Assembly (NCBI GenBank): GCA_951406725.2
Contig: OX597815.1
Location: forward strand, 103,602,001-103,666,000
DNA: 64,000 bases
Reading direction: 5' to 3'
Source of the DNA: Octopus vulgaris
Lineage: Eukaryota
Made by a program: the position numbers and the translations under genes. Below, piece by piece: positions 17,746 to 56,149 of the stretch. Position 1 is the stretch's first letter; every line of letters begins with the position of its first letter. Below the pieces are notes generated by a model. That model was not told the origin of the DNA. It ran no database searches and saw only the letters and a list, made by a program, of their open reading frames with translations.

Positions 17746-18614
17746 GACAGATATACAATGACACAGAAGTCCTTTTAGCATTTAAATATTTTTTTTTCTA
17801 TTTTGCTACTATTTCAATTCTTTTATTTTGAACTATGACATTATCAAAAGATGAGAAAATATAGGAACGTATGTGAATGCACGTGGTATGTTTAAAGAAA
17901 AAATAAATTATCGCTCTTCTAAACATGTCGCTTTTCAAACGATTTAAACCTACAGGCTCATTTGAAGATATCTCAAGGTCTGCACTGCCACACACCTCAG
18001 TGAAACACAACATTCTATTACCTTTCATTATCAACCTGATCCACAGGGTTCAATGCAGGATGCTGCAAAAGTAACTCCATCTGGCAGTATTCTATCTAAA
18101 GGTGTTTAAAATCTTATGACAAGAAAACTTTTCACTTGTCAGCGGTTCATAAAATTATCTGACGATGATAAATGTACATGGCTTGCGATGTAGTGTGAAC
18201 AGGTCGTTCAGCAATAGCCTTTGATACAGACTACGTTAAGAAGGGTTTATTTAGTGATGAATAAAACTTTTCTTTCATCTTGCGCTCACTGTCAACAGGT
18301 TTAAATGTGGAGAATGGGGTTATGATCGTTACTTTCACTTGCCAAAATTTACTGTTTGGCTTGGCTACACAAGTCATTTACTTGGCTCCTATTTGTCTAT
18401 TGATACTATTATAACAAAATATTCTTACTTGAAGAAACTGAAATAAGTTTCAGTACAAGACATAAAATGGAAAAGAATATTCTTCAGCACAATTCTATGT
18501 CAACCTGGTGCGCACCTACGCAAGTGTTTTACTGTGAAATGCTTACTTAATGTATAATTTCTAAACTGCTGCTGGGGAAGACATGAACCGACTTTGGTGA
18601 TACAAATGTCTAGA

Positions 18615-18816
18615 CAGTTCTGTATTTCAGAGATGAGGAATTATGTACACAATTTACATTAATTACAATTGACGGATATATTTGTCTTCAAATTGTTTGT
18701 TGTTAACACAACGTTTCGGCTGATATACCCTCCAGCCTTCATCAGGTGTTGCTTGGAATCGAACTCGGAATCATGGGGTTAGTAGACCGCACTCTTAACG
18801 ACTACGCAATATGCCC
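18615..18816 (-). mobile_element. tRNA-headed, hammerhead-bearing SINE (family H), left arm of an inverted dimer, internally deleted
   Basis: Minus strand: tRNA-like head gggcatattgcgtagtcgttaagagtgcggtctactaaccccatgattccgagttcgattcc (A and B boxes), followed by the HHR and tail aacaacaaac..ccgtcaattgtaa..cataattcctcatctc. Confidence 0.9.
18705..18750 (-). ncRNA. Minimal type I hammerhead ribozyme with intact core
   Basis: aacac-CUGAUGA-a-ggcug(gaggguauau)cagcc-GAAAC-GUU-guguu. Stem I 5 bp, stem II 5 bp, loopless palindromic stem III (AACGUU), as in PLE/retrozyme minimal HHRs. Confidence 0.85.
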
Positions 18817-18867
18817 ATGTCATTTACAGGAGTGGCTCACATGACTACACAAACAAATATCCTTTAC

Positions 18868-18932
18868 TAAGAGTGCTGGCTACTAACCCCAATATTCCGG
18901 GTTCGATTCCAGATAGTGACCTGAGATAGTGA

Positions 18933-18995
<63 letters not shown>

Positions 18996-19172
18996 TAACA
19001 ATAACAATAACAACAACAACAACAACAACAATAGCAATAATAATAATAACAACATCGAAAAATGCCTTAGGAATGAAGACCCAGGTTCGAAATTCCCCCA
19101 AGACACCTGGTGAAGACTGGAGGATATATCAGGCGATGAGGACAAATATCCGTCAATTGTAAATAATGTACA
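18868..19172 (+). mobile_element. Family H SINE, right arm of the inverted dimer; includes an (AAT/AAC)n tract and a damaged hammerhead
   Basis: taagagtgctggctactaaccccaatattccgggttcgattcc, (AAT)n at 18937-19053, then cgaaaaatgccttaggaatg..gacacCTGGTGAagactggaggatatatcagg (GAAA region deleted) and tail gaggacaaatatccgtcaattgtaaataatgtaca. Confidence 0.9.
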
Positions 19173-19555
19173 AATGTCTAGATCTGATTGTTATGGATTT
19201 CTTCTCTTTTCTTTTTTCTTTTTTTTTTTTTTGTCTGCTTTTGATATCAGGTCTACTCAAAGATATTCACAAAACATTGAACATTCAAATCAAAGAACCA
19301 AAGAGGAAATTATGATATACGAAAGCGAATCTTGGAACGAATTCCGTTTTGGCAGTTGAAGAATATCTAAATTATGTACTGAGTGTGTGTGTGGATATGT
19401 GAAATAATATATACTAAAGGAAATAACATTAAGCGTTTTTTCCATGAACATTTAATTTTTTTATTTACAGTTGTATTACAAAGTATTAAAATGCAAAACA
19501 GACTTTTCAATTACAATATTGCCATTCATACATGCGCACGCAGATATATGAGTTA

Positions 19556-19629
<74 letters not shown>

Positions 19630-19824
19630 TGAGTGAAATAGATAGATAGATAGATACATACATACATACATACATACATACGTATAATGAGTATATGAGG
19701 GTATAAATAAATATATACGTATGCAAATATGTATATAATATGCGTATGTGTATAAACTTATATGCGCACGCACACGTGCGCGTGTGTGTATGTGTGTGTT
19801 TTGTGTGTGAGAGAGTGATAGTTA

Positions 19825-20094
19825 GTATGAGCTTGTTTTCGTGGGCGTATACTCGTGAAAGCTGAATACGCAAATCCATTATTCGTGCATAGAAACACAT
19901 GACATGAATTTTTCTATTCGCAAGACACTTGGAATTACAGGCACATTAATGAGCACACGCCCTATAAACCGGCCATGCACACAAACACGCAGACATGCAT
20001 GCACATGCATATATTGCATACACACATGTTTATTCAAAAAACATAGGTACATATATGAATATATATAAATATATATATATATATATATGTATAA

Positions 20095-20335: not shown

Positions 20336-20717
20336 ATCTACAGACATATGTACAAACACATGTGCATACGTGTGTGTGTGTATATACGCAGAAATACACA
20401 CACGATCTATGCAAATGCCTACTTTTACTCTGCCAAACGGTTTTTGAGTCAACATGTGTCATTGATTTCTGCTAGAATGTGTCATTTGCAGGAGTGGTTC
20501 ACATGACTACACAAACAAATATCCTTTACTAAACCATGGACTAGTGCTTCATTTCAGTATTGCTGGCTTGACAGCTACCTCACGTTGATATAAGCCTGTG
20601 TAGTGTACAATAACATGTCCTTATTTCTCAGACTTACACGTTTACAGGTCTATGTACCTATCTATCTATCTATTTCTCTCTCTCTCTCTCTTTCTCTCAC
20701 TCTCTCTCTCTTTCTCG

Positions 20718-20852: not shown

Positions 20853-20946
<94 letters not shown>

Positions 20947-21210
20947 CAGACAGTATGAACTTGTTTTCGTGGGCGTATACTCGTGAAAGCTAAATACGTA
21001 AATCCATTATTCGTGCATATCATAGAAACACATGACATCAATTTTTCTATAGGCAAGACACTTGGAATCGCAGACACATTATTGAGCACAAGCTCTATAA
21101 ACCGGCCATACACACAAACACGCAGACATGCATGCACATTCATATATTATATACACACATATGTATATTCAAAAAACATAGGTACATATATGAATACATA
21201 TAAACACATA
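19825..21210 (+). repeat. Local direct duplication of ~245 bp (19825-20070 vs 20952-21210)
   Basis: cttgttttcgtgggcgtatactcgtgaaagct...ctataaaccggccat...caaaaaacataggtacatatatgaata occurs twice with scattered substitutions. Confidence 0.9.
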
Positions 21211-21621
21211 TAAGAAAAAGGTATTCAACACATTTAGTAGGAGTTACATATATGACTATTTGAAACAATTTGTTACGGCTCTATGCGACTTAAAGTTTCG
21301 CACGCCACTTACAGAAACCTAGCTCGTCAAGTTCAGAAACCCGAATGGAGAAGCAGAGGAAGTCCAAGATGGCTACTGAGGAATGGGCTGCTATACATAG
21401 TGTTTTCAGAAGTGAGATCGGTATTTTAGCGACATCAGATGCATTGGAAAGGAGCGTGGCTGAGTAGTAAAACTGGTGGCGCCTGGTGTCTGGCGAAAAT
21501 TGAAGTGATTTTAGAAGCTGATTAGAAGGAAGGCCAGTGAGAGAGAGAGAGGGGGGGGAGTGAATTAGAGGGGGAGGGAATGAGAGGGCGAGGGAAGGAG
21601 AGAGGGAGGGCAAGAGAAAGG

Positions 21622-55839: not shown

Positions 55840-55968
55840 TTCTTCTTCTTCTTCTTCTTCTTCTTCTTCTTCTTCTTCTTCTTCTTCTTCTTCTTCTTCT
55901 TCTTCTTCTTCTTCTTCTTCTTCTTCTTCTTCTTCTTCTTCTTCTTCTTCTTCTTCTTCTTCTTCTTC
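55840..55968. repeat. (TTC)43 pure trinucleotide repeat
   Basis: Direct reading of the sequence. Confidence 0.95.
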
Positions 55969-56149
55969 GAAAAATATCTTAGGAATGAGAACCCAGGTGC
56001 GAAATTTCCCCCAAACACCTGATTGAAGGCTGGAGGGTATATCAACTGAAATGTTGGGTTAATAACAAACGAGATGAGGACAAATATCTATCAAGTGTAA
56101 ATAATCTAAATAATATACATAATTCCCCATCTTTCAAATATAAAACTGT
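55967..56149 (+). mobile_element. Family H SINE 3' part (hammerhead tail), degenerate
   Basis: cgaaaaatatcttaggaatgagaacccagg..aacacCTGATTGAaggctggagggtatatcaactGAAAtgttgggtt..gaggacaaatatc matches 19056-19172 and 18615-18750. Confidence 0.9.

Follow-up and report, generated by a model that had tools for sequence, protein, structure and literature searches.

A head-to-head pair of Penelope-type terminal repeats in the Octopus vulgaris genome, probably joined through a patch copied from neighbouring DNA

How two copies of one short element come to lie head to head inside one target-site duplication, with a piece of chromosomal DNA from elsewhere between them, is the question raised by positions 18601 to 19182 of the window, the whole stretch of 64,000 nucleotides that was analysed, which runs from 103,602,001 to 103,666,000 on contig OX597815.1. 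An answer depends on what the element is, whether the two arms arrived together, where the intervening piece came from, and when it was acquired.

Anatomy of the insertion

The insertion is flanked by an exact 14-bp direct repeat (plus strand, 18601-18614 and 19169-19182), identified by sequence comparison. The 14-mer occurs twice in the window, both times at an arm end, with a single-site probability of 1.3e-8, which bears out the single target-site duplication around both arms proposed in the initial annotation. The left arm, aligned on the minus strand at 18614-18819, ends at the outer of two start sites (see below) and carries a 33-nt tail. Its 5′ end lies at most 2 nt from the usual start, its 3′ end is full, and its (AAT)n middle is deleted. 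The otherwise complete head is tRNA-like (18755-18817, minus strand), with motifs that we take to be A-box-like and B-box-like from the generally known consensus; ARAGORN made no tRNA calls across six loci. A minimal type I hammerhead motif was read from the sequence at 18705-18750 (minus strand), with a CUGAUGA core, stem II, GAAA, and a palindromic ACGU in place of stem III. By its sequence this motif is intact and constitutes a putative ribozyme; Rfam returned no hammerhead or other relevant match, either for the whole window at the gathering score or for the locus by E-value.

The right arm was aligned on the plus strand at 18868-19172 and ends at the inner start site, 33 nt before the full 3′ end, sharing 4 nt with the right copy of the duplication. 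It lacks 24 nt of the head, and contains a 13-nt tandem duplication (18911-18936) followed by an (AAT/AAC)n tract at about 18937-19054. Its hammerhead (about 19102-19136) is broken by a core change and by a deletion of ~25 nt, which takes out GAAA and the 3′ strand of stem I. Of the two arms, both described earlier as hammerhead copies, only the left one has an intact hammerhead. The minus-strand and plus-strand orientation of the arms, and the TAA overlap at the start of the plus-strand copy, were borne out by alignment.

The joint with its filler was also found in contigs labelled as organisms B and H (X3 record 32 crosses the left joint and X20 record 24 crosses both joints), indicating that the insertion is shared and is no assembly artefact. 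Contigs of runs X1, X3, X19, and X20 gave the filled state only, and no empty allele, where they cover the locus; those of X10, X12, X16, and X18 had no match to the left flank and carry no weight either way. A second piece of the element, headless and with an outer-site end, lies between (TTC)n and (AGAT)n tracts at 55967-56149 of the window.

Source of the filler

The filler (18818-18870, plus strand) is identical at 51 of 53 positions to 20480-20532, single-copy DNA on the plus strand in the same orientation, as sequence comparison confirmed. BLAST and a search with a 22-nt pattern, allowing one mismatch, placed the filler at exactly two sites in the 2.8-Gb genome, and a control pattern gave no hits. 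A high-copy repeat or a part of the element consensus, which the initial annotation had named as a finding that would count against its reading, was ruled out by these genome searches and by comparison with the element. At the right junction, the filler overlaps the arm by 3 nt (TAA); at the left junction, the overlap is 2 nt, or 3 nt if one CpG decay is allowed, so that the unique filler is 18820-18867. The similarity between filler and donor ends at the arm boundaries. The donor is indeed nearby, but the distance of 1.66 kb first given for it counts the insertion itself; 1298 bp separate the right duplication from the start of the donor, which lay 1.3 kb from the cut before insertion. An older local duplication, unrelated to the filler, is present near the donor (19809-20079 and 20937-21212, 81-89% identical, at 1.13-kb spacing).

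Identity of the element

The element had been labelled a SINE. This label did not survive comparison with long copies, in which a protein-coding frame adjoins or enters the short element, identifying it as the terminal repeat (pLTR) of a Penelope-type element. In long copies, the stop codon of an autonomous ORF lies ~30 nt upstream of the tRNA-like head, and in other copies (L132, L137, and L144) an open frame begins immediately ahead of the hammerhead, crosses both start sites, and continues into the ORF. The end of the ORF before the head, together with the open start of the ORF after it, defines the short element as a pLTR, consisting of a 5′ leader and the ORF start. A stand-alone tRNA-derived SINE was ruled out, since the head follows closely behind an autonomous ORF and the body encodes the start of the ORF. 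A TATA-like word was seen at the stop of the preceding ORF, ~30 nt before the head, in L101-L125 and L132.

Broken ORF pieces in L106 are arranged in the order reverse transcriptase, then endonuclease of the GIY-YIG type. A Pfam search of five ORF pieces gave one weak match (RVT_1, E = 7.7e-4, below the curated cut-off) and no GIY-YIG match; the last 212 aa of L106 gave Atlas feature matches of 0.96 to clusters in which 12-27% of the members carry GIY-YIG. No full-length copy with an intact ORF was recovered. Judged by domain order and pLTR anatomy, the element is probably an EN+ Penelope-like element (PLE) of the Penelope/Poseidon type. The features of EN+ PLEs found here are the order of reverse transcriptase and GIY-YIG, a pLTR that contains a hammerhead motif and the ORF start, an inverted 5′-truncated copy, a 30-40-nt tail at one end, and a duplication around the whole unit.

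Among 52 copies on contig C1, 31 begin at the start of the head (29-40 nt before the anchor sequence used in the searches) and eight begin further upstream. This distribution is compatible with transcription starting at the tRNA-like head. Solo pLTRs behave like a SINE, with most short copies starting at the head, and for annotation the consequence is that what looks like an abundant "SINE" consists of solo pLTRs from an autonomous element.

Two-armed insertions across the genome

Head-to-head pairs are a recurrent form of this element. An exact two-anchor pattern was found 416 times in the genome, compared with 0.64 expected from 8,876 anchor hits. For a sample by eye, 60 anchor hits were taken in order along contig C1, skipping a few neighbours and two known dimers; eight were background and 52 were element copies. 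An inverted arm abutting the 5′ end was present in 32 of the 52 copies, with two more recognized on a later check; two copies were unclear, 16 had no inverted arm, and three pairs look like duplicates. Two arms are the normal product of this element.

The arms of a dimer enter together. Both 3′ ends were present in 75 of the 95 dimers examined, and in 41 of these 75 a duplication scoring at least 9 surrounded the whole dimer, compared with 2.5% of 1,500 mismatched pairs. This extends to inverted pairs elsewhere the duplication seen at the study locus, as the initial annotation had suggested should be checked, and supports its view of the dimer as a single event. The two ends of a dimer are not interchangeable. 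With 13 dimers that have a more shortened arm excluded, both ends could be classed in 62; one outer and one inner end were paired in 53 of them, two outer ends in one, and two inner ends in eight, where 30.6, 12.2, and 19.2 were expected (p = 3e-9). The inner end lies ~25-45 nt before the outer end, and both are fixed zones lacking poly(A). The offset is the tail known from PLEs, which in vitro work attributes to two internal start sites (PMC11167929). The outer-inner pairing supports the earlier proposal that both strands of the cut primed reverse transcription. Microhomology at the priming sites averaged 2.4 nt for inner and 1.8 nt for outer ends, against nulls of 1.2 and 0.6, with no clear difference between the two.

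The arms of a dimer also resemble each other. At a subfamily site with a frequency near 60:40, the arms agreed in 50 of 52 dimers (52% expected), and rare non-CpG variants were common to both arms in 20 of 62 dimers, compared with 12.8% of unrelated pairs (0.52 versus 0.14 rare shared variants per pair). Both arms derive from one source, either the same RNA used twice or two RNAs of one locus. The "separate RNAs" of the initial annotation, if unrelated ones were meant, disagree with the concordance at the subfamily site. Part of this signal could come from subfamilies being active in waves, or from conversion of one arm by the other. The signal is weak at the study locus: the subfamily site falls in the deletion of the left arm, and the arms have no rare variant in common; they share one minor allele (13 of 123 arms).

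Joint fillers across the genome

A first set of 81 loci was assembled from 10 kb around 80 long-joint dimers and the study locus; 40 of the dimers were picked among 87 listed sites for looking long or foreign, and 40 among the 50 listed of 80 sites. Forty fillers of at least 15 nt were found in 39 of the 81 loci. Twelve of these derive from the element ORF (eight from the ORF start and four from the contiguous ORF end), three from the element head, and 25 are foreign. For twelve of the 25 foreign fillers, including that of the study locus, the flank of the same locus gave a better match than any of the 80 other loci. The other foreign fillers comprised three simple repeats, one ambiguous case, and nine that did not map; extension of ten loci to 15 kb yielded no further donor. 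For validation, 20 further loci were chosen by their first 80 letters. They yielded 15 fillers, nine of which scored higher in the flank of their locus than in any of the 100 others; the filler of L173 is of low complexity, and that of L175 maps only in part.

Pooling the two sets, 21 of 40 non-element fillers have a local donor, compared with fewer than one expected by chance, and 19 have none. Mapping the spacers back to the genome, the check proposed in the initial annotation, thus shows that a filler taken from nearby DNA is a recurrent feature. As the sites were hand-picked, the 21 of 40 is a share of the foreign fillers and not of the insertions; the rate of local patches is at least 7 of about 443 anchor-defined dimers (~2%, a lower bound). 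Five donors (L029, L052, L058, L074, and L087) also match other loci more weakly, as copies of repeats. Mapped fillers are 22-166 nt long, with one of 21 shorter than 25 nt. Measured beyond the arm end, donors lie at a median distance of 649 nt, and over a search span of 4.7 kb, 19 of the 21 are no more than 1.6 kb away (p = 1.5e-7 versus a uniform distribution). Filler ends overlap the arm by at least 1 nt in 27 of 42 cases, a count taken from local alignments without a null, and in 17 of the 21 local-filler loci at least one arm reaches to within a few nt of its natural 5′ end.

In the first set, donors lay mostly in direct orientation and on the side of the inner arm (eight inner, two outer, and two unclear). 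This bias, set down as a prediction ahead of the validation, was rejected there, with two inner and seven outer donors, five direct and four inverted. The pooled ratios are 10:9 for inner to outer and 13:8 for direct to inverted, so that no ordered first-strand and second-strand model is supported. All four combinations of side and strand suit two free cDNA ends and exposed DNA flanking a double-strand break.

Some joints have a more complex content. At 4930-5105 of L052, a complete head is followed by a short fold-back, 139 nt from just past the arm end, and an inverted piece of the head. Short telomere-type (TAACCC)n repeats lie between the arms of L012 and L027, as if a cDNA end had been extended before joining. 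Fillers from the ORF start, which is downstream of both start sites, occur in L018, L023, L034, L038, L053, L054, L067, and L077, and those in L018, L054, and L077 finish with a run of A directly ahead of the head. This run suggests that synthesis jumped from the 5′ end of an RNA onto a short transcript, entering at its 3′ end.

Timing of the patch and alternative explanations

We give a probability of roughly two in three to the reading that the study locus is one two-armed pLTR insertion, whose filler is a copy of DNA 1.3 kb away, likely made while the cDNA ends were being joined. Likewise, the local patches elsewhere likely record how Penelope-type elements seal two fresh cDNA ends. The main alternative accepts the two-armed insertion and places the patch later. 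Long palindromes get revised at the centre. The dimer would have been inserted as a near-perfect palindrome, whose centre later broke as a cruciform or hairpin and was patched with nearby DNA by host end-joining, so that the filler would mark palindrome instability and not insertion.

The divergence of fillers and arms bears directly on this possibility. At non-CpG sites, pooled filler-donor divergence (102 of 1510, 6.8%) equals arm-arm divergence (189 of 2567, 7.4%; p = 0.49), so that no age gap between fillers and arms is visible, which argues against later repair, although such a gap would be missing too if the repair had followed insertion by only a few generations. Across the 21 loci, filler and arm divergences are uncorrelated (rho = -0.16), and the filler is less diverged than the arms in 14, a tendency that later repair would produce. 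The study locus itself has the same tendency: its filler differs from the donor at 2 of 53 sites, and its arms from each other at 13 of 119 (p = 0.10), so that the filler looks younger, and the head of the right arm is 24 nt short. Together with the lack of a shared rare variant, this means that later repair also fits the study locus.

The structure of other joints tells against later repair. Near-perfect palindromic joins persist, in 8 of the 50 listed sites having the 86-nt length expected with no spacer. In L040 and L060, both arms retain the core, which is not palindromic and could not have been supplied by a simple palindromic join. The eight ORF-start fillers occupy the same joint, with no full local copy of the element to provide them. 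These three observations favour joining at insertion, and leave the later breakage of a palindrome as an unlikely alternative for the study locus.

A second alternative retains joining at insertion and changes the template: the reverse transcriptase would have jumped from the 5′ end of the element RNA to a nascent transcript of the invaded locus. Fillers drawn from the downstream RNA of the element, three of them with an A-run before the head, suggest jumps from RNA to RNA, and local transcription would yield proximity. The occurrence of donors on both sides and both strands, thinning past 1.6 kb, is better matched by exposed DNA, and we regard an RNA template for the local fillers as improbable. 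Two independent insertions flanking an old 53-bp duplication, with a 14-bp repeat arising by chance, are hardly credible: the arms do differ at 11% of non-CpG sites (above the 7% mean) and an unrelated local duplication lies nearby, but the exact 14-mer stands at both arm ends, the donor similarity halts at the arm boundaries, and the outer-inner pattern is typical of single events.

Proposed mechanism of integration

In the reading favoured here, joining at insertion on a DNA template, the endonuclease of the element would make a staggered cut that leaves 14-nt 3′ overhangs, and each overhang would prime reverse transcription at one of the two fixed internal start sites. The templates would be the same RNA, or sister RNAs from one source copy. 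Both cDNAs would be extended toward the 5′ end of the RNA, where they would usually anneal via short complementary words. At the study locus, one cDNA end would first have moved onto chromosomal DNA made accessible beside the break, where resection or opening had exposed about 1.5 kb; after copying some 50 nt, it would have come off and annealed to the other cDNA. The patch could be synthesized by the reverse transcriptase of the element or by a host polymerase; the jumps onto the element's own RNA are a hint of the former.

A broader proposal, which we hold tentatively and at slightly less than even odds, is that double target-primed reverse transcription is the usual route of PLE integration, each strand being primed at its own fixed start site on one source RNA. 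Conventional 5′ attachment would not take place, and the ends would be sealed by template jumping over ~1.5 kb on both strands, onto the element's own RNA, or onto telomeric repeats. If true, double target-primed reverse transcription explains through a single step why the pLTR is inverted and why only one side has a tail; Penelope-type elements would then be a source of short local duplications. The octopus joints themselves provide values that can be tested in the existing in vitro system or in cells: each strand uses a single start site, the two arms share a source, the cDNAs are joined at their 3′ ends, and a patch is drawn from DNA at most ~1.6 kb away in at least ~2% of the dimers.

Relation to known systems

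The closest described arrangement, in the accessible portions of the sources, is that of Pen2a_Av, in which an inverted 5′-truncated pLTR lies beside a direct one, with a 30-40-bp tail at one end, a duplication of the whole unit, and the ORF start within the pLTR (PMC3846280; PMC8557442); unrelated sequence captured between solo pLTRs is also mentioned (PMC3846280). The octopus insertions resemble EN+ PLEs of the Pen2a_Av type in the inverted pLTR, the one-sided tail, and the duplication around the unit. They differ in that the unit consists of the pLTR only, has a tRNA-like head, and contains a captured piece that could be traced to DNA beside the cut. The accessible portions of PMC3846280 and PMC8557442 contain no mapping of joint fillers to local DNA and no counts of outer and inner ends. 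For Poseidon_Ac, in vitro experiments described in the available text showed that both strands are cut and extended; reverse transcription began at two neighbouring internal positions within the start of the ORF, and the tail corresponds to the interval between them (PMC11167929, Frangieh et al. 2024). In that system no difference in start site was seen between the strands, and the joining steps were left open (PMC11167929); the octopus dimers, in contrast, use one start site per arm and show how the ends are joined. The inverted repeats, tails, and sealing of PLE insertions are posed as open questions in the portions available of PMC8557442 and PMC11167929.

Twin priming of L1 provides a second point of reference. 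As far as the available parts of the sources go, both nicked strands prime cDNA, the ends join by short complementarity within one duplication, and a growing cDNA can copy genomic DNA over less than 250 bp (bioRxiv 10.1101/2024.08.27.596794; PMC2912911; PMC11702581). The octopus dimers likewise have opposed cDNAs inside one target-site duplication, joined by microhomology. L1 uses poly(A) and a variable internal site, and gives mostly non-overlapping arms in a minority of insertions, whereas the octopus element has two fixed sites, overlapping arms, and two arms as the rule. In 22 templated L1 insertions, the template was typically no more than 15 bp from the insertion site (bioRxiv 10.1101/2024.08.27.596794, in part); only one of the 21 octopus donors is so close, and their median distance is 649 nt. 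Patches made by polymerase theta are templated by the flanks, primed by a few bp, sometimes patchworks, and generally shorter than 25 bp (PMC12426944, available portion). Flank-derived patches are common to both systems, and those of the octopus may also have been primed by short overlaps; the octopus patches are 22-166 nt long, 20 of 21 exceeding the length typical of polymerase theta, and their donors extend to about 1.5 kb, with two farther away. Retrozymes have been linked to PLEs, with tRNA and target sites unmentioned in the accessible part of the source (bioRxiv 10.64898/2026.07.22.740005).

By the features tested, the study locus is a PLE insertion, twin-priming-like with an SDSA-like detour. 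Inverted arms, the tail, and templated insertions were already known singly. What is new is the recurrence of local fillers, their range of 1.6 kb with no bias of side or strand, and the strict pairing of one start site per arm. No account of locally templated PLE joints or of a tRNA-headed pLTR was found in the openly accessible literature; an earlier description may exist elsewhere.

Tandem and one-armed copies

Two minor forms of the element were also noted. L143-L146 consist of tandem head-to-tail units, each made of the pLTR body and ~70-130 nt of the ORF start, and it is possible that they arose by rolling or repeated jumping on a small RNA. Fifteen copies, almost all of them lacking an abutting arm, were searched for local donors of the 70 nt that precede them, and one match was obtained (L195). 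There, the 60 nt upstream of a one-armed copy match DNA about 1.1 kb away, and may be either a patch of local origin beside an insertion with a single arm or part of a tandem repeat.
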